A stretch of 64,000 nucleotides of DNA from a bacterium (GTDB taxonomy: Bacteria; Armatimonadota; Zipacnadia; Zipacnadales; UBA11051), in the NCBI GenBank assembly GCA_021372615.1, contig JAJFUB010000093.1:7912-71911 (forward strand), read 5' to 3'. The notes below the pieces were generated by a model, which saw only the letters and a list, made by a program, of their open reading frames with translations, was not told where the DNA came from and did no database searches. This document shows, piece by piece, positions 22,470 through 43,304 of this stretch. Both the position numbers and the translations under genes were made by a program. How positions within the stretch are numbered: the stretch's first letter is position 1; each line of letters begins with the position of its first letter.

Positions 22470-22625
22470 GCCGCGTGGGCGGGCGTGTCCTCACGCCCGC
22501 AGTGCCGTCGGCCGCGTGGGCGGGCGTGTCCCCACGCCCGCAGTGCCGTCGGTCGCGTGGGCGGGCGTGTCCCCACGCCCGCAACGGCTTTGGCCGCGTG
22601 GGGACACGCGGCCCCACGCGACCCT
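22470..22625. repeat. Tandem array of REP family A variants (three 41-bp units plus one inverted unit)
   Basis: GCCGCGTGGGCGGGCGTGTCCYCACGCCCGCA units start at 22470, 22511 and 22552. An inverted CGTGGGACACGCGGCCCCACGCG follows. Confidence 0.85.
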
Positions 22626-35798: not shown

Positions 35799-35940
35799 CG
35801 GGGAGTTCCTTTCTCGTCCGGGCATGTCGGGAAGCAGCACGCCATTCGGCGCGCGGGGCCAGTGAACCTGCCCGGGTGTGCAGGGCCGGGGGCGGGGACG
35901 GGGAACCCTCCGCCATCTCTGCCTCCCAAGAGGTGCCCCC

Positions 35941-38115
35941 GTGAAGCATCTACCTGACGTGAAGCCGCTGACGTGGAAGGGCGATCTGGCTGCCCGGATG
36001 GTTGCCGGGATGGACAAGTTCCTGCGCCGCGCTACGGTCGAGCGCGCCGGGCAACGCGAGCGCTACTGGAAGCGCGACACAAAGTCCTGGGCGCGGCACG
36101 AGAAGTCTGTCGCGCCGAATCGCGCGCGGCTGGCGAAGTTCCTCGGGGTGGTAGATGAGCGGGTCGAGGCGGAGATGTTGCTGGAGGAGAGCGGGTCCAG
36201 AGGCGCCATCCACTACATCGGGGACATGAGCCAGTCGCAGCACACCGTCCGTGATGCGCGACTGATGGTGTTGCCTGGCGTCACGGCAGAAGGCCTGCTC
36301 CTGCGGCCGAAGGGCCCGATGGTTGCGAGTGTCGTCGCGATGCCTGACTGCGACGAGACACCCGAGTCCGTGGCGACGGGCCTCGGGGCGCGGTTGGCGC
36401 AGAATGGCTGCCAGGTGTTCATCCCGACGCTCATCAACCGTGACTGCGAGTGGTCCGGGGTCGCCGGCGCCATGACCAACGAGCCGCACCGGGAGTTCAT
36501 CTATCGCGCCGCGTATGAGTTGGGGCGGCACATCATCGGGCTGGAGATACAGAAGGTGCTGGCGGCGGTGGACTGGTTCAGCAAGGCGGGCTTGCCCATC
36601 GGGGTCATCGGCTACGGCGAGGGGGGGCTGATCGCTCTGAATGCCGCGGCACTGGACACGCGCCTTGACGCCGCGGTCGTCAGCGGGTACTTCGGTCCGC
36701 GCGAGGGGCTCTTCGCCGAGCCGATCTACCGCAATGTCTGGCGGCTGCTGGAGGAGTTCGGGGACGCGGAAGTGGCTAGTCTCATCGCCCCGCGGACGCT
36801 CATCGTCGAGCACTGCCCATTCCCGGCGGTTGACGGGCCGCCGCCGGTGAGCGAGGGGCGCTCGGGTGCGGCACCCGGGGCGATCACGACCCCGTCGGCG
36901 GCCGCGGTCCGCAAGGAACTCGGCCGTACCGAGAAGCTGCTGGGCGGGCTAGAGCCGGCGCTGAGCTTGGTCGAGACGGAGGCGCCGGGCAGCGCGGCGG
37001 CGCTGGAGGCATTGCTGGGAGCCCTGGGCGCGCCCTCAGCCGGCGGGCACAGCGAACGGTGCTGGACGGTCCACGCCAGCGCCCGCCTCAAGCGCCAGTT
37101 CGACGAGATGGTCGAGTGGACGCAGGCGCTGATGCGCGAGTCCGAGTACATCCGGCGCGACTACTGGGCGCAGGCCGACGCGACCGACGTGAAGTCGTGG
37201 GTGAAGACGACCAAGGCCTACCGCAAGCGCTTTCATGAGGAGGTCATCGGGGCGCTGCCGGAGCCGGACATGCCACCGAACCCCCGCGCCCGGCGAGTCT
37301 TCGCCACCGAGGCCTTTACCGGCTATGAGGTTGTGCTCGACGTGTATCCGGATGTGTTCGCCTACGGCATTCTGCTCGTGCCGCATGATGTGCAGCCCGG
37401 CGAGCGCCGGCCTGTCGTCGTGTGCCAGCACGGGCTGGAGGGCCGGCCGCAGGATGTGGCCGACCCGTCGGTCGAGGGGAACTGCTACTACCAGTTCGCC
37501 TGCCGGCTGGCCGAGCGGGGCTTCGTGACCTTCGCCCCGCAGAACCCCTACATCGGGTATGACGCCTTCCGCGTGCTGCAGCGGATGGCCAACCCGCTGG
37601 GGCTGTCGCTGTTCTCGTTCATCATCCGCCAACACCAGCGCCTGCTGGGGTTTCTGAAGACGCTGCCGTATGTGGATGGCAAGCGGCTGGCGTTCTACGG
37701 GCTGAGCTATGGCGGGAAGACGGCCATGCGGGTACCGGCGGTGCTGGAGGACTACTGCCTGTCCATCTGCTCGGGGGACTTCAACGAGTGGATCTGGAAG
37801 AACGCCTCGACCCGCGCGCCGTTCAGCTACATGCGCACCGGCGAGTATGAGATGTTCGAGTTCGACCTGGGGATGACGTTCAACTACGCCGAGATGAGCT
37901 ACCTCATCTGCCCACGCCCCTTCATGGTCGAGCGCGGGCACTGGGACGGCTGCTCATGGGATGAGTGGGTCGCATACGAGTACGCCAAGACGAACTACCG
38001 CTACGACCTGCTGGGGATCGGCGACCGGACCGAGATCGAGTACTTCAACGGCCCGCACGAGATCCACGCGGTGGGAACGTCCGCGTTCCTGGAGAAGCAC
38101 CTGAGGGGGCAGTAG
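35941..38115 (+). CDS. Tandem alpha/beta-hydrolase (dienelactone hydrolase/acetylxylan esterase-like)
   Basis: Two hydrolase units with elbows IGYGEGG and YGLSYGG, plus VVCQHGLEG and NGPHEI. GTG start after GAGG. Confidence 0.8.
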   Translation: MKHLPDVKPLTWKGDLAARMVAGMDKFLRRATVERAGQRERYWKRDTKSWARHEKSVAPNRARLAKFLGVVDERVEAEMLLEESGSRGAIHYIGDMSQSQHTVRDARLMVLPGVTAEGLLLRPKGPMVASVVAMPDCDETPESVATGLGARLAQNGCQVFIPTLINRDCEWSGVAGAMTNEPHREFIYRAAYELGRHIIGLEIQKVLAAVDWFSKAGLPIGVIGYGEGGLIALNAAALDTRLDAAVVSGYFGPREGLFAEPIYRNVWRLLEEFGDAEVASLIAPRTLIVEHCPFPAVDGPPPVSEGRSGAAPGAITTPSAAAVRKELGRTEKLLGGLEPALSLVETEAPGSAAALEALLGALGAPSAGGHSERCWTVHASARLKRQFDEMVEWTQALMRESEYIRRDYWAQADATDVKSWVKTTKAYRKRFHEEVIGALPEPDMPPNPRARRVFATEAFTGYEVVLDVYPDVFAYGILLVPHDVQPGERRPVVVCQHGLEGRPQDVADPSVEGNCYYQFACRLAERGFVTFAPQNPYIGYDAFRVLQRMANPLGLSLFSFIIRQHQRLLGFLKTLPYVDGKRLAFYGLSYGGKTAMRVPAVLEDYCLSICSGDFNEWIWKNASTRAPFSYMRTGEYEMFEFDLGMTFNYAEMSYLICPRPFMVERGHWDGCSWDEWVAYEYAKTNYRYDLLGIGDRTEIEYFNGPHEIHAVGTSAFLEKHLRGQ

Positions 38116-38155: not shown

Positions 38156-38234
38156 CGCGTGGGCGCGCGTGTCCCCACGCGCGCATCGGGTAGCGACAGA
38201 AGACTGCGCGCGTGGGGACACGCGCGCCCACGCG
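38156..38234. repeat. REP family A doublet with perfect 30-bp inverted arms
   Basis: Arms at 38156-38185 and 38205-38234, spacer TCGGGTAGCGACAGAAGAC. Confidence 0.9.
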
Positions 38235-38243
38235 ACCCGATGG

Positions 38244-39806
38244 CTACAGCGTCTTGCCGTAGATGACCTGGCCGTCGCCGACGCCGTAGAACTCGGGCAC
38301 GTGGCCGTAGGGCTCGTAGCCGGCGCGTTCGTACAGGCGCCGGGCGGGAGCGTATGAGGGCGTGTCCGAGGTCTCGATGATCAGGACGCGCCCCCCGAGC
38401 CGGCGCGTCTCGTCCTCCACCCGCCGCAGGAGCTTGCGCCCCACGCCCTGCCCGTGGCACGCCGGGTCTACCGCGAGCCAGTACAGGTCATAGGTGCGGT
38501 CGGTCAGCGGCCGCGGGCCGAAGATGGCGAAGCCGACGGGCTGCCGACTCACCGTGGCGACGATGACCGCGTAGTCCTCCCCCGTGAGACTCTCACCCAG
38601 GAGTTCGCCGATCGTCTCGACTTCCTCGGGGGTGAAGACGCGACAGTCCGACGAGAGGCGGACGAGGGCGGGAATGTCGGCCTTGCGGAGCCGCCGCAGG
38701 CGCGTGGGCGCGCGTGTCCCCACGCGCGCATCGGGTGGCGACAGACTGCGCGCGTGGGGACACGCGCGCCCACGCGACACCGTCTCAGGCCGGTCCAGGC
38801 CCAGTCGCGTCGTTGCGGCTGCGAGGATGGCTGCGATGACCTCGACGTGCTCGATCCCCAGGCGGTTCGCCAGGATGATGAGGTCGCTTACCACCGGCTT
38901 GAGGCCGGGGAGGGGGTTGGCCTCGATGAAGTGCGCCACGTGGTCGCGGAGGCGGAAGTCTATCCGCGCGACATCGCGGCAGCCGAGGGCCTGCCAGCAG
39001 GTCAGGGCCGCCGCGCGGACCGCTGCCTCGTCCTCGGGCGTGAGGGGCGCCGGGGCCTCATAGCGCATCAGTTGGCGGTACTCGCGCTTTTCGCGCAGGC
39101 CGTAGACGAAGGTGTCGGCCTGGGCCCGGGTAGGGATTGCCTGCATGATGCCCAGGACATGCGGGGGATCGTTGCCGACGAGGCCCACCGTCAGGTCGGG
39201 GCCTGCCACGAACTCCTCCACGAGCACCGGCTGGTCGTAGCGCCGGCGCACACGGCGGATGGCGGCGGGCAGGCGGCGGCGGCTCGTGATGACGCTGTCG
39301 GCGCCAATGCCCTTGCTGGAGCCCTCGTACGCGGGCTTGAGGATCACCGGCAGCGGCAGCCGCGCGAGGTCGTCGGCGACGGCGGCCGGGTCGTCGGCGA
39401 CGAGCACCCACTGCGGAGTGGCCGCGCCGGCGGCACGCACCAGGCGCTTGGCGCAGTCCTTGTCCAGCGTCGCGGCCATCGTCAGGGCGTCCGAGCCCGT
39501 GTACGGCAGGCCGAAGCTCTCCAGGAGCGCGGGCACCCACGACTCGCGGCAACGCCAGGCGCCCCGGCCCTCGGCCAGATTCAGCACCAGCTCGGGCCGA
39601 GCGCCAGTCAGCAAGCGCCGCACGAGCTGCTCACCATCGCCCAGCAACATGACCTCGTGGCCGAGCAGCGCGATGGCGTCGGCGATCTCGCGGATCGTCT
39701 CGGGGGAGTCCAGCTCCTCCTCGGCGTCATCGGGATGGTCGGTGGAGACCAGGGGTAGACGCTGGGGTGGGGCGCTCTTGACGGAGTAGGTGAAGCCGAT
39801 GATCAC
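38244..39806 (-). CDS. D-Ala-D-Ala-ligase-like ATP-grasp enzyme fused to a C-terminal GNAT acetyltransferase
   Basis: NLAEG, LDKDCAK, ILKPAYEGSSKGI, LVEEF, RIDFR and EANPLPGL. GNAT motifs YDLYWLAVDPACHGQGVGRKL, IETS and LYERAGY. Confidence 0.85.
   Translation of the reverse strand: MIIGFTYSVKSAPPQRLPLVSTDHPDDAEEELDSPETIREIADAIALLGHEVMLLGDGEQLVRRLLTGARPELVLNLAEGRGAWRCRESWVPALLESFGLPYTGSDALTMAATLDKDCAKRLVRAAGAATPQWVLVADDPAAVADDLARLPLPVILKPAYEGSSKGIGADSVITSRRRLPAAIRRVRRRYDQPVLVEEFVAGPDLTVGLVGNDPPHVLGIMQAIPTRAQADTFVYGLREKREYRQLMRYEAPAPLTPEDEAAVRAAALTCWQALGCRDVARIDFRLRDHVAHFIEANPLPGLKPVVSDLIILANRLGIEHVEVIAAILAAATTRLGLDRPETVSRGRACPHARSLSPPDARVGTRAPTRLRRLRKADIPALVRLSSDCRVFTPEEVETIGELLGESLTGEDYAVIVATVSRQPVGFAIFGPRPLTDRTYDLYWLAVDPACHGQGVGRKLLRRVEDETRRLGGRVLIIETSDTPSYAPARRLYERAGYEPYGHVPEFYGVGDGQVIYGKTL
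38701..38776. repeat. REP family A doublet inside the ATP-grasp/GNAT linker
   Basis: Arms at 38701-38730 and 38747-38776, identical to those at 38156-38234. Translated in frame as RGRACPHARSLSPPDARVGTRAPTR. Confidence 0.9.
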
Positions 39807-41122
39807 CGGGGCCCAGCGCTCCCGCGCCGGCGGCGGCGCTGTAGCCGGGGCGTACTCTCGGGCGCGAGCACCGTCTCCTGCCCGGCCAGCAGCCCGCTGA
39901 CGCCCTGGCGCAGCGCACTGTCGCAGGCGGCAGGCGCCCCGCTCTGCGGGTTGTAGCGGAACAGCACGCCCTCGTAGTTGCGCAGCACGACGGAGTCCTC
40001 GGAGGCGGAGACGAGGTAGTTGGGCATGATCGGCACCTTGCCGGCGCCGTGCAGCCCATCCACGGCATAGGTGGGCACCGCCACGCCGGAGACGTGCCCG
40101 CGTAGCCCCTCAATGATCTCCAGGCCCTTCCACAGCGAGGTGCGAAAGTGCCCCGCGCCGCGCACGGGGTCACAGTGGAACATGTAGTAGGGCCGCACCT
40201 TGATGCGCAGCAACCCGCGCACGAGGGCATGCATGGCCTCGACGGAATCATTGACGCCCTGCAGCAGGGTCGTCTGGTTGTTCACGGGAATACCCGCCTC
40301 GATCAGCAGGCGGCAGGCGAGGGCGGACTCGCGGGTGATCTCGCGCACGTGGTTGAAGTGGGTCTGCACCCAGACCTTGCGCTGGGCGGCGAGCATGTCC
40401 ACCAACTCGCCGTCGAGCAGGCGCTGGGGGAGGGTGACGGGTACGCGCGTGCCGACGCGGATGAGGTCCACGTGCTCGATCTCGGCCAGCGGGGCGATCA
40501 GGCGGCGCAGGCGGGCGGCCGACAGCATCAGCGGGTCGCCGCCGGAGACGATGATGTCATGCACCTCGGGATGGTCGCGCACGTACTGCACGACGGCGTC
40601 TACATCGGCCTGCAGGTGAGGCTCGGCGTCGCGGGCCATCGTGTTGCGCTTGCGGGTGCAGAAGCGGCAGTACATGGGACAGACCTGGCTGGCGAGCACC
40701 AGCACGCGGTCGGGATACCGATGCGTCAGCCCCCGCACCGGGGAGTCCTCTTCCTCCTCCAGCGGGTCCTCCATCTCGTCGGCCGCGGCTTCGTTCAGCT
40801 CCAGCGGCGAGGGTACGGCCTGCAGGCGGATGGGGTCGTCCGGGTCGTCGGGGTCAATCAGTGACAGGTAGTACGGGGGAATGGCCAGGCGGTAGGCGTC
40901 CGCCACGACGGCGAGGGCCTCGACGGTCGGCGGAGGCAGAGGCAACACGCGGGCCAGTTGCGCCACGGTGCGGACCGTGTGCTTGTGCTGCCAGCGCCAG
41001 TCAGTCCACTGCTCGGGGGCGACACCTTGCCAGGGGGCAGGGGGCCGAGTAGGCTCAAGGGAGTACTCTCCCCCTTCACCAGGATCGAGCTGCGGCAGGC
41101 GGATCGGATGTGAAGGGGTCAA
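39803..41122 (-). CDS. kamA: Lysine 2,3-aminomutase (KamA family radical SAM, PLP-dependent)
   Basis: WTDWRWQ, GLTHRYPDRVL, CPMYCRFCTRKR (CxxxCxxC), SGGDPL, RVGTRVPVTLPQR, THFNH, RPYYMFHCD and VPTYAVDGLHGAGKVP. Confidence 0.92.
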   Translation of the reverse strand: MTPSHPIRLPQLDPGEGGEYSLEPTRPPAPWQGVAPEQWTDWRWQHKHTVRTVAQLARVLPLPPPTVEALAVVADAYRLAIPPYYLSLIDPDDPDDPIRLQAVPSPLELNEAAADEMEDPLEEEEDSPVRGLTHRYPDRVLVLASQVCPMYCRFCTRKRNTMARDAEPHLQADVDAVVQYVRDHPEVHDIIVSGGDPLMLSAARLRRLIAPLAEIEHVDLIRVGTRVPVTLPQRLLDGELVDMLAAQRKVWVQTHFNHVREITRESALACRLLIEAGIPVNNQTTLLQGVNDSVEAMHALVRGLLRIKVRPYYMFHCDPVRGAGHFRTSLWKGLEIIEGLRGHVSGVAVPTYAVDGLHGAGKVPIMPNYLVSASEDSVVLRNYEGVLFRYNPQSGAPAACDSALRQGVSGLLAGQETVLAPESTPRLQRRRRRGSAGPR

Positions 41123-41173
41123 GTGAGGTCAACGACCTCCCGATGCCGAAATGTGGCCCTTGTTTGGTGCGCG

Positions 41174-41202
41174 ATTGTAGACCCGACCTGAGGGAGAGTC
41201 AA
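41174..41202 (-). promoter_or_regulatory. Sigma70-type promoter for kamA and the ATP-grasp/GNAT gene
   Basis: Minus strand TTGACT-N17-TACAAT, ending about 50 nt upstream of the kamA start. Confidence 0.7.
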
Positions 41203-41203
41203 G

Positions 41204-42220
41204 TTGCTTGATGGCCTTGGCGGGAAGATTGTGGTGCTGTATACCTCGGTGGCCGAGGCGCTGCTCGACGTACCCGAGGAATTGCGGGACTCGATGGACC
41301 TGGGCGTCCATGCGCAGGAGGTGGCGCGGGTGCTGTTGGCGGGAGAGCACGACGCCTGCGCGCTGTGCTGGGATGACGCCGTCTGGCCGACCCTCACGGC
41401 CCTGCAGGACCTGCAGCCGGAGGTCATCTTCAACCTGGCCGAGTGCCCCCAGCGCACCTGCCTGAAGGCCCCCCACGTCGCGGCAGTGCTGGAGTTGCTG
41501 CGGCTGCCGTACACCGGCAACGGGCCGCTGGCGCTGGCCCTCGCGACGGACAAAGCGCGGGCGAAGCGCCTGCTGCGCGCCCAGGGCATCGCGACCCCGG
41601 ACGGGGCGGTCTGTGCGGCCCCGCCCGAGCAGTGCACGATGCCCTTCCCCCTGATCGTCAAGCCGCTCTACGAGGACGGGTCGCTGGGCATCACGGAGGA
41701 CAGCGTCGTCGAGAACTTGCCGCAGTTGCGGGAGCGGGTCGCACGCGTCGTCGCAGAGCTGCAGCAGCCGGCGCTGGTGGAGGGGTTCCTGCCGGGCCGG
41801 GAGTTCCAGATCGCGGTGCTGGGCAACGGCACGCCCGACGACCCGCACCGCCTCCTCCCCCCGGCCGAGGTGCTCTATCAGCCCGGCTGGCGCCTCGTGT
41901 CCTACGCGGCCAAGTGGGAGCCGGACCATCCGGCGTACTCCGGCACGCCGACGACATGCCCGGCCGACATCGCCCCGAAGCTGGCGGAGCGCCTGGCGCA
42001 GTTGGGGCGGCGGTGCGCGGAGGCGTTCGGGCTGACGGGTTACGCGCGGATGGATGTGCGCCTGGACGCGCGCGGCGAGCCACATGTGCTCGAGGTGAAC
42101 CCGAACCCGGACCTGAGCGAGGATGCGGGCTTCGCCAACACGGCGCGCGCGGCGGGGCTGAGCTACGAGGCGTTGCTGTGGGAGATCGTGCGGCTGGGGC
42201 GGGCGTTGGGGGGAAGGTGA
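41204..42220 (+). CDS. D-Ala-D-Ala-ligase-like ATP-grasp enzyme
   Basis: IFNLAE, PYTGN, TDKARAK, IVKPLYEDGSLGI, LVEGFLPGREF, GYARMDVR and LEVNPNPDL. Confidence 0.88.
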   Translation: MLDGLGGKIVVLYTSVAEALLDVPEELRDSMDLGVHAQEVARVLLAGEHDACALCWDDAVWPTLTALQDLQPEVIFNLAECPQRTCLKAPHVAAVLELLRLPYTGNGPLALALATDKARAKRLLRAQGIATPDGAVCAAPPEQCTMPFPLIVKPLYEDGSLGITEDSVVENLPQLRERVARVVAELQQPALVEGFLPGREFQIAVLGNGTPDDPHRLLPPAEVLYQPGWRLVSYAAKWEPDHPAYSGTPTTCPADIAPKLAERLAQLGRRCAEAFGLTGYARMDVRLDARGEPHVLEVNPNPDLSEDAGFANTARAAGLSYEALLWEIVRLGRALGGR

Positions 42221-42234
42221 GAGGGGGACGGCTT

Positions 42235-42340
42235 ACGGCAACGGCGTCCTCACCCCGCAGACTGCTGCGCAGTCTGAGCCCTCTCCCGCGCGCGATAGGG
42301 CTGCGCGCCGGAGAGGGGAACGGCAGCGGCGACGGCGGTG
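42235..42340. repeat. Family B palindromic element between convergent ATP-grasp genes
   Basis: ACGGCAACGGCGTCCTCACCCC...CCCTCTCCCGCGCGC...GCGCGCCGGAGAGGGGAACGGCAGC, sharing its ends with 3330-3410. Confidence 0.75.
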
Positions 42341-42344
42341 CGGG

Positions 42345-43304
42345 CTAGGTGTCCGCCAGAATCCGCTCCACGGCTTGCCCCATCGTCAGGCCCGCCCGCT
42401 TCACTGCCGCTGCGAAGCCCGCATCCGGGGCGAGGCACGGGTTGGTGTTGACCTCCAGCACCCACGGCTCACCGGCCTCATCCACCCGGAAGTCCACCCG
42501 TGCATAGCCCCGCAGACCGAAGCACTCCCAACACCGCCGGGCCAGCTCGCGCAGGCGCGCAAGCAGGGGCGCAAGCAGGGGCGCATCGCGCCGCGGGAAG
42601 CGGAAGCGACGGGTGGCGCGCTCGGCGTCCCCCCACTTCTCGGCATAGTCCACCACGTGCGGCTCGTCGGCGGCGTAGCCACCGAAGACCATCTCCGCCG
42701 GGGGGAGGACTGCTGGACCAGCGGCGCCGGCCAGCAGGGACAGGCTGAACTCGCGCCCGGCGATGAAGGCCTCGGCGAAGCACTCCCGGCCCAGACGACG
42801 CTCGGCGGCGCGCACGGCCCTCGCCAACTCCCCGGCACCTCGGACTTCGACCACCGACTCGCGCGTCAGGCCGATGGAGGCGTGCTCCCAGACGGACTTG
42901 ATGATGAAGACGCCCCGCGCCGGAGCGCCGGCACCGGCCCAGGGCGGTGTCGGGAGGCCCTCCGCAACCATCTGCCGCTTGGCCAGGAGCTTGTGGGAGG
43001 TCAGGAAGATGGCCTCAGCGGGGGAGCCGGTGTAGGGCAGTCCCAGCGCGTCCAGCCACGAGGGGAGCAGGTGGATCAGGCGGCCCTGGCCCGCCGGGGC
43101 CTCGACGAGGTTGAACGCGAGGTCCGGTCGCAGGTCGGCGAGGGTCTGCTGCAGGGCGGGCAGGTCCAGCGTCACCGGCACGGCAACTGGGGCATGCCCC
43201 AACCGCTTGAGCACCGTGGCGACATGCCGGGCCTGCACGAGCGCATCCGCAACATCGGCCGGCGCGCCTGGGGGGACCTCATCATGGAGAATGGCAATTC
43301 GCAT
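42345..43304 (-). CDS. D-Ala-D-Ala-ligase-like ATP-grasp enzyme
   Basis: AFNLVE, PYTGS, SHKLLAK, IIKSVWEHASIGL, EAFIAGREF, GYARVDFR and LEVNTNPCL. Confidence 0.88.
   Translation of the reverse strand: MRIAILHDEVPPGAPADVADALVQARHVATVLKRLGHAPVAVPVTLDLPALQQTLADLRPDLAFNLVEAPAGQGRLIHLLPSWLDALGLPYTGSPAEAIFLTSHKLLAKRQMVAEGLPTPPWAGAGAPARGVFIIKSVWEHASIGLTRESVVEVRGAGELARAVRAAERRLGRECFAEAFIAGREFSLSLLAGAAGPAVLPPAEMVFGGYAADEPHVVDYAEKWGDAERATRRFRFPRRDAPLLAPLLARLRELARRCWECFGLRGYARVDFRVDEAGEPWVLEVNTNPCLAPDAGFAAAVKRAGLTMGQAVERILADT

Follow-up and report, generated by a model that had tools for sequence, protein, structure and literature searches.

Introduction

Palindromic repeats that are translated within genes have been described in Rickettsia, and the Rickettsia palindromic elements and other translated repeats are documented (PMC3184786), the former being palindromes read in frame with their host genes (Ogata et al. 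2000, cited in PMC3733652). Among repetitive extragenic palindromes (REPs), the GTAG/CGTC-tagged type is also found within genes, where more than half of the elements occur as dimers and 20-30 residues are encoded (Di Nocera, De Gregorio & Rocco 2013; PMC3733652), and the host proteins of these intragenic REPs are unrelated to one another, arguing against a function of the insert (PMC3733652). REPINs, that is, REP doublets forming hairpins, are mobilised by REP-associated tyrosine transposases (RAYTs) (Bertels & Rainey 2011, PMC3116915; PMC3337134). The in-frame insertion of REPs into genes is already known, and the locus analysed here is another example: in a 64,000-nucleotide stretch, hereafter the window, of contig JAJFUB010000093.1 from a bacterium of the Armatimonadota (assembly GCA_021372615.1), one REP doublet lies in frame within an open reading frame (ORF) that encodes an ATP-grasp ligase fused to a GNAT acetyltransferase, and a near-identical doublet lies just past the end of this ORF. 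The nearest characterised system combining a KamA with a GNAT is the N-epsilon-acetyl-beta-lysine system AblA/AblB, which works without an ATP-grasp ligase.

Based on the analysis presented here, we propose that the doublet within the gene is a simple and recent in-frame insertion of the REPIN type into the linker of an ATP-grasp-GNAT fusion that already existed, a reading that we regard as fairly probable. The fusion itself was most likely not created by the REP, and no function is needed to explain the insert.

Results

Two near-identical REP doublets in direct orientation

The two doublets and the ORF concerned lie as follows, in coordinates of the window:

38701..38778, no strand: inner REP doublet (REPIN-like), 78 nt or 26 codons, recognised by its arms, their identity and its translation
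38156..38236, no strand: outer REP doublet, 81 nt, intergenic
38244..39806, minus strand: ORF of 520 aa with ATP-grasp, REP-coded linker and GNAT, by translation, Pfam, AlphaFold2 and codon-usage gene call
38802..39806, minus strand: ATP-grasp coding part (AG1), 55-60% identical to stand-alone AG1 genes that follow lysine-2,3-aminomutase-like (LAM) genes in other lineages
38247..38702, minus strand: GNAT coding part, orthologous to the stand-alone GNAT P0122 of metagenome contig L039 (68% aa identity)

The original prediction, made from the letters alone, had described two near-identical direct REP doublets flanking the GNAT coding region, and the comparison of arms and spacers finds them as described. 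The arms lie at 38156-38185 and 38205-38234 in the outer doublet and at 38701-38730 and 38747-38776 in the inner one, and they are 30 nt long, 100% complementary within each doublet and of the same sequence in both. The outer spacer (TCGGGTAGCGACAGAAGAC, 19 nt) and the inner spacer (TCGGGTGGCGACAGAC, 16 nt) differ by one substitution and a 3-nt indel, and two extra common bases (..GAC) extend the shared blocks to 38156-38236 and 38701-38778; the doublets are in direct orientation and start 545 nt apart. At ≤3 mismatches the 29-mer unit has 8 matches in the window and 0 in 100 shuffles, and a chance origin of the repeat match is excluded.

Folding gives each doublet a 30-bp stem of -77 to -79 kcal/mol (-79 for the outer), and the inner one is predicted as an RNA hairpin of about -74 to -78 kcal/mol (z -8.7). 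Like REPINs, both consist of two inverted REPs with a spacer, form one hairpin and bear the signs of having been copied as a unit. The other doublets of the genome have unrelated spacers of 0-43 nt; because only these two share a spacer, and only they, among the genome's doublets, have zero mismatches across all four units, one may be a recent copy of the other, or both may come from one master, having moved whole in the manner of a REPIN. None of the Rfam families fits the doublets, the search returning only sub-threshold matches to generic hairpins (miRNA precursors), on which ground a known RNA family was rejected.

The inner doublet is translated as an inter-domain linker

The original prediction is also right that the ATP-grasp/GNAT linker comes from translation of the inner doublet, since the minus-strand ORF 39806..38244 reads through the doublet without a stop. 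The doublet supplies residues 343-369 (SRGRACPHARSLSPPDARVGTRAPT-R) of the fusion protein, its 78 nt being a multiple of three within the continuous frame of the 520-aa ORF. No stop codon occurs in the inner doublet in any of the six frames, and therefore any insertion of this element with a multiple-of-three length stays open.

The protein carries both domains in one polypeptide, as do fused relatives, and is laid out as a Ddl-like ATP-grasp ligase (residues 1 to ~335), the REP-coded linker and a GNAT (~369-520), with Pfam matches to Dala_Dala_lig_C at residues 127-328 and to GNAT at ~401-508. An AlphaFold2 model built on a 57-sequence alignment has a mean predicted local distance difference test score (pLDDT) of 90.4, with high confidence for both domains; pLDDT falls below 50 solely at residues 342-363, which are the REP-coded peptide, and a confident helix (320-335) and strand (369-372) flank this segment. 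In the model the insert occupies the linker and spares the folded domains. The sequences on either side of the inner doublet share a single reading frame and a common coding signature. The ATP-grasp-GNAT protein is probably real, and its Arg/Pro-rich linker is probably repeat-derived rather than functional.

Evidence for a proposed insertion into an existing fusion

On the minus strand the junction reads GAG ACG GT, then the 78 nt, then C CTG CGG, and excision gives ..DRPETV-LRRLRKADIP.., in frame and with no stop. Because excising the 78 nt leaves an open frame, a plain insertion suffices to explain the sequence. The REP-less protein would be 494 aa long and would pass from the last ATP-grasp helix to the first GNAT strand within about 8 residues; its length matches that of short-linker fused homologues, many of which are at 482-501 aa.

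A clean empty site is available for another copy of the family. The doublet at C127:7877-7935 of the window's genome (G000) contributes 20 codons in frame inside a gene for a DUF6785 membrane protein, with the Pfam domain aligning across it; the orthologue in a congener (G003, 89% identity) lacks exactly these 20 residues, and those in G004 and G001 have gaps there as well. Simple in-frame insertion by this REP family is thereby demonstrated at C127. In a GH38 gene (C95), domains lie on either side of another doublet. For the locus itself, the distant orthologue in the genome G029 (54-57% identity) is without an insert, and a 95%-identical contig stops short of the site. The latter, L055 (MTKZ01020680.1, from another metagenome), has 95% nucleotide identity to window 38880-42787, which covers the LAM gene, AG1 and the upstream ATP-grasp genes, and its source appears to be a population at about the species level that exists elsewhere.

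We propose that the outer copy would have settled downstream of the gene, between convergent genes, and that the inner copy would have landed within the gene, in the short linker of the already existing ATP-grasp-GNAT fusion. There it would have survived as a 78-nt element, a multiple of three and stop-free in every frame, placed between two independently folding domains, and the linker would have grown from about 8 to about 34 residues as an Arg/Pro/Ala-rich disordered peptide. The insertion at this very site, its recency and its side effects are what we infer. Because a strong 30-bp stem of perfect sequence stands in a coding region, the inner insertion would seem to be very recent and maybe mildly harmful; as a hairpin in the mRNA, the 30-bp stem could possibly slow or stall ribosomes or attract RNase III.

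Fused and separate homologues of the two domains

The nearest homologues of AG1 (55-60% identity) are stand-alone genes after LAM, often followed by a second ATP-grasp gene, AG2, and the latter occurs by itself, fused to AG1 (~700 aa) or fused to GNAT (~480-545 aa). In other lineages the clusters have the form LAM-AG1-AG2 or carry AG1-AG2 or AG2-GNAT fusions, at times with an MFS transporter. In other cases a GNAT of the family has its own gene, which immediately follows an ATP-grasp gene at a distance of 15 or 30 nt or overlaps it by 4 nt. Fusions of ATP-grasp and GNAT with linkers of ~8-45 aa are common, and among the fused homologues are P0003, a 528-aa protein of L029 and many others of 482-544 aa, with P0134, P0171 and P0262 (498-501 aa) as examples of the short-linker class. 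Since homologues show both fusions and adjacent genes, the ATP-grasp/GNAT pair is often fused and often split.

The most informative fused relative is that of G029, a member of the same order, in which the cluster of a divergent ATP-grasp gene (AGx), LAM and the AG1-GNAT fusion is conserved. AG1 and GNAT form one 517-aa ORF there, at 54-57% identity, and the linker of 29 aa is Pro/Ala-rich and without REP or palindrome. A whole-protein search for closer fused relatives returned just the window's own protein and P0003, a search with the GNAT region returned the window's own protein alone, and a GNAT-only search gave nothing nearer than P0122 (68%); in scans of genome contigs, no REP copies and no GNAT nearer than 48% were found.

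The REP family and the Y1 transposases of the genome

The window's genome is a metagenome-assembled genome (MAG) of 6.4 Mb, 68% GC and 171 contigs, 96.7% complete, in which the family numbers 126 units at 101 loci when ≤4 mismatches are allowed and 141 units at 104 loci when ≤5 are allowed. The REP unit of 32 nt, G[TC]CGCGTGGG-CGCGCGTG-TCC[TC]-CACGCGCG-CA, has a GTGG head, a 9-bp stem and a 4-nt loop (TCCY), and the consensus of the family is G[TC]CGCGTGGGCGCGCGTGTCC[TC]CACGCGCGCA. The change of C10/G25 to G10/C25 occurs in 29 units and supports the hairpin of the unit, because it is compensatory. The unit has the properties of a REP, being a GC-rich imperfect palindrome in the size range of 20-40 nt that recurs many times in a single genome, mostly in intergenic positions downstream of genes. 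Its head tetranucleotide is GTGG (G[TC]CGCGTGGG) and not GTAG/CGTC, GTAG being rare (e.g. C110:23191 and G003:C247), and the CGCGTGGG head has 935 sites genome-wide, where it precedes many different stems, those of other hairpin subfamilies included. Copies of the family were found in 1 of 40 relatives, a congener with 2 units, and a scan of GTDB species-representative genomes gave no exact matches; as judged from these genomes, the family appears to be lineage-specific, almost confined to the window's genome, and young.

As placed by a crude codon-usage gene caller (90% coding), the 104 loci include 51 between unidirectional genes, 11 between convergent and 5 between divergent genes, and 25 within genes, so that the family shows REP behaviour but has an unusually large intragenic share. 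The intragenic doublets are mostly tight (~60 nt, with a spacer of 0-1 nt), combine two different stem variants and fold more weakly than the intergenic ones. With its long spacer and perfect arms, the inner doublet belongs with the usual intergenic copies, unlike the other five intragenic doublets, which measure ~60 nt and fold at -41 to -57 kcal/mol.

Elsewhere in the window, at 22473-22619 (G000:C147:30384-30530), three direct units of the same family, in its CGGGCG stem variant, follow one another at 41-nt spacing and are joined by a fourth, inverted unit. The short spacers of this array, 12 nt, hardly differ (GTGCCGTCGGCC / GTGCCGTCGGTC), a sign that the array may have grown by local tandem amplification; a CRISPR-like reading of the 41-nt-spaced triple at 22473-22583 was rejected on the same ground, in favour of a REP array. 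A second REP subfamily, with the same GTCGCGTGGG head and a different hairpin, GGCCGGGACTTCCAGGACCGGCC, occurs at L039 644-768 and on the contigs C40, C31, C68, C110 and C133 of G000, and is common to this genome and the L039 organism.

The genome has 7 Y1_Tnp (PF01797) genes, and those inspected adjoin other repeats. The Y1-transposase (RAYT-like) loci L021 (G000:C11), L022 (G000:C87), L023 and L024 each have their own inverted repeats or arrays, and the gene on C87 is surrounded by many copies of a AGCGCCGGAGGCGCG...GGCGGAAGCCCCCGTC element. Because these genes each carry their own repeats, the genome holds several REP/RAYT-type systems.

Gene neighbourhood and the site of the outer doublet

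The neighbouring genes that bear on the argument are these:

39803..41122, minus strand: lysine-2,3-aminomutase-like radical SAM gene (LAM/KamA-like), with Radical_SAM and LAM_C matches
35878..38115, plus strand: gene of the dienelactone hydrolase (DLH) family, convergent, ending at 38115, the synteny anchor with L039
41231..42220, plus strand: second ATP-grasp gene, AGx, divergently transcribed, 54% identical to its equivalent in the G029 cluster

The LAM gene and the start of the fusion gene have 4 nt in common, and LAM is 65% identical to its counterpart beside the G029 fusion. The whole cluster, at window 38244-43304, comprises the LAM-like gene, three Ddl-like ATP-grasp genes, the second and third of them further upstream, and the GNAT; its product is possibly a beta-lysine-derived peptide.

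That the doublets bracket the GNAT-coding part stands, with the refinement that the outer doublet lies outside the gene, in the 128-nt spacer between convergent genes. It begins about 7-8 nt past the stop of the fusion gene (minus strand) and 41 nt past the stop of the convergent plus-strand gene, and is an ordinary intergenic REP, where REPs normally sit. At window 38206-38227, on the minus strand, there is a weak intrinsic-terminator-like site, made of the first outer hairpin followed by the T-richer spacer AGTCTTCTGT; the inner copy is without the extra TCT present in the outer spacer.

L039 shares the arrangement downstream of AG1, namely the GNAT, then a spacer that holds a REP, then the same hydrolase gene in convergent orientation (93% aa identity over the last 136 residues), and the gene upstream of its GNAT is unrelated and absent from the window's genome. 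The REP in the L039 spacer after the GNAT belongs to a different subfamily with the same GTCGCGTGGG head, and it starts at the stop codon itself. Because L039 holds a different REP subfamily at the equivalent site, the site after the GNAT would be a landing spot for REPs with turnover, and both doublets of the window would be younger than the split from L039.

Discussion

The proposal of a simple insertion into an existing fusion has several findings to contend with, and together they weigh against it. There is no empty site for the exact locus, L055 breaking off 100 nt short of the inner REP. P0122, the nearest relative of the GNAT, is a stand-alone protein with a typical N-terminus and an unrelated gene upstream, and the AG1 tail before the REP (RLGLDRPETV) is as long as the C-termini of stand-alone AG1 proteins. 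No RAYT flanked within ~1 kb by this REP family was found among the 7 Y1_Tnp genes, in an assembly that is 96.7% complete, so that the gene may be missing. The trees, too, fail to join the window and G029 domains firmly: the first GNAT tree set the window apart from G029, the two were joined with 79% support in the Shimodaira-Hasegawa-like approximate likelihood ratio test (SH-aLRT) once one long branch had been removed, and the AG1 tree gave no resolution. Phylogeny was rejected as decisive for one versus two fusion events, given this reversal of the GNAT tree and the state of the AG1 tree.

Several of these findings lend weight to the most serious alternative, which we nevertheless rate as unlikely, namely that AG1 and GNAT were separate or non-neighbouring in the ancestor shared with L039 and that a REP event welded the two ORFs in frame, the doublet having taken the place of the AG1 stop codon, the spacer behind it and ~5 initial codons of the GNAT, either by insertion with deletion or by recombination at a REP. 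In its favour, the closest GNAT, P0122 (68% aa identity), is encoded by a 157-aa stand-alone gene adjoining the same DLH gene on the 1.2-kb metagenome contig L039, and the nucleotide homology of L039 and the window (77%) extends from the hydrolase gene across the GNAT as far as window 38702, where the inner REP has its first base; a break at the domain boundary would, however, also be left by selection that kept the GNAT working once the upstream genes were lost. Separate adjacent ATP-grasp and GNAT genes are common in the family, but so are short-linker fusions of the REP-less length. Both REP flanks resemble natural gene ends, and a REP that is stop-free in any frame would read through in frame into the next gene one time in three by chance, whereas removal of a stop is beyond a plain 78-nt insertion and would call for an extra precise deletion although the REP is perfect, and the excised sequence is already an open frame. 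The tree in which the window and P0122 GNATs fell among stand-alone GNATs, apart from the G029 GNAT, lost this separation when one long branch was dropped. Moreover, the homologous cluster of G029 is fused without a REP, so that the order of AG1 followed by GNAT is old, and elsewhere the REP family has inserted simply and cleanly. We rate a fusion made by the REP lower because it needs the extra deletion, because selection could also explain the L039 break, because the order seen in G029 is old and because the tree reversed.

The suggestion of the original prediction that a REP insertion fused two genes by removing a stop is thus not the best reading in view of the REP-less fusion in G029 and the open frame after excision, although the break of homology with L039 at the REP speaks for it. 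The occurrence of the same fusion without the REP in a relative, G029, is half of what the original prediction had named as counting against itself, the other half being that no deletion alleles exist. It is rather unlikely, in our estimate, that a REP-mediated domain graft, by which a resident stand-alone acetyltransferase gene was joined to the end of the ligase gene, left the inner doublet behind as its scar. If such a graft were true, stop-free mobile palindromes could serve as ready-made linker cassettes that create multidomain enzymes, and the new domain would stay deletable through the twin copy; a fusion made by the REP would be a concrete case of palindromes creating multidomain proteins, which the present data do not favour.

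A further alternative is that the GNAT segment is mobile or excisable, either as a composite moved by a RAYT or as a switch, through recombination, between a ligase-only and a ligase-acetyltransferase form. The direct repeats of 78 and 81 nt, one substitution and a 3-nt indel apart at 545-nt spacing, do bracket the domain exactly. Repeats of 78/81 nt are known substrates for deletion, and it is plausible that recombination between the two could delete the 545 nt coding for the GNAT. But the GNAT is orthologous and syntenic with that of L039, so that it did not arrive as a cassette; a second copy of the GNAT segment was not found in the genome; and the contig assembles through both copies, whose spacers are distinguishable. 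The deletion product, moreover, would read ~75 codons antisense to the DLH gene, which is no tidy alternative product and hardly resembles a designed switch. We therefore hold a mobile or switchable GNAT segment to be very unlikely, and the REP-bounded mobile cassette of the original prediction finds no support, given the residence of the GNAT beside the same DLH gene in L039 and the lack of a second genome copy. That the inner doublet, or the continuity across it, is a mis-join at a repeat is scarcely credible, for although the genome is a 171-contig MAG and the related contig L055 breaks 100 nt before the REP, the two copies have different spacers and are thus distinct sequences, the flanks of the inner copy share one frame and coding signature, and the domain order is the same as in homologues.

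The simple insertion into a pre-existing linker, which we prefer, makes this locus a clear and well-controlled case of a selfish hairpin repeat tolerated in a protein as a disordered inter-domain linker, in a lineage that has been little studied and where perhaps one in four copies of the family lies within a gene. It would also be a case of a whole REP doublet copied with its spacer over a few hundred bases, as expected of a REPIN. For annotation, the odd Arg/Pro-rich linker of the ATP-grasp-GNAT protein should probably be read as repeat-derived.

Compared with the described systems, the locus resembles the intragenic REPs of PMC3733652 and the Rickettsia palindromic elements in that small palindromes stand in frame in genes that apparently still function. 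It differs from the former in its head, GTGG with GTAG as just a rare variant, and in that the insert coincides exactly with an inter-domain linker and is accompanied, at 545 nt, by a near-identical twin; from the other intragenic doublets of its own genome it differs in having a long spacer, as the intergenic copies do, and a perfect 30-bp stem. The likeness to REPINs lies in the two inverted REPs with a spacer that form one long hairpin, in the lineage-specific family and in the whole doublet copied here with its spacer, which is the defining behaviour of REPINs. However, most doublets of the family have unrelated spacers and do not make up a single REPIN population, no RAYT flanked by the family was found in the genome, and about a quarter of the loci are apparently intragenic. 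As in AblA/AblB, a GNAT function comes after a KamA-like radical SAM gene in the gene cluster, which differs in its three ATP-grasp paralogues. What is particular to this case is the exact placement in the inter-domain linker, the twin that brackets the domain and the direct evidence of whole-doublet copying.

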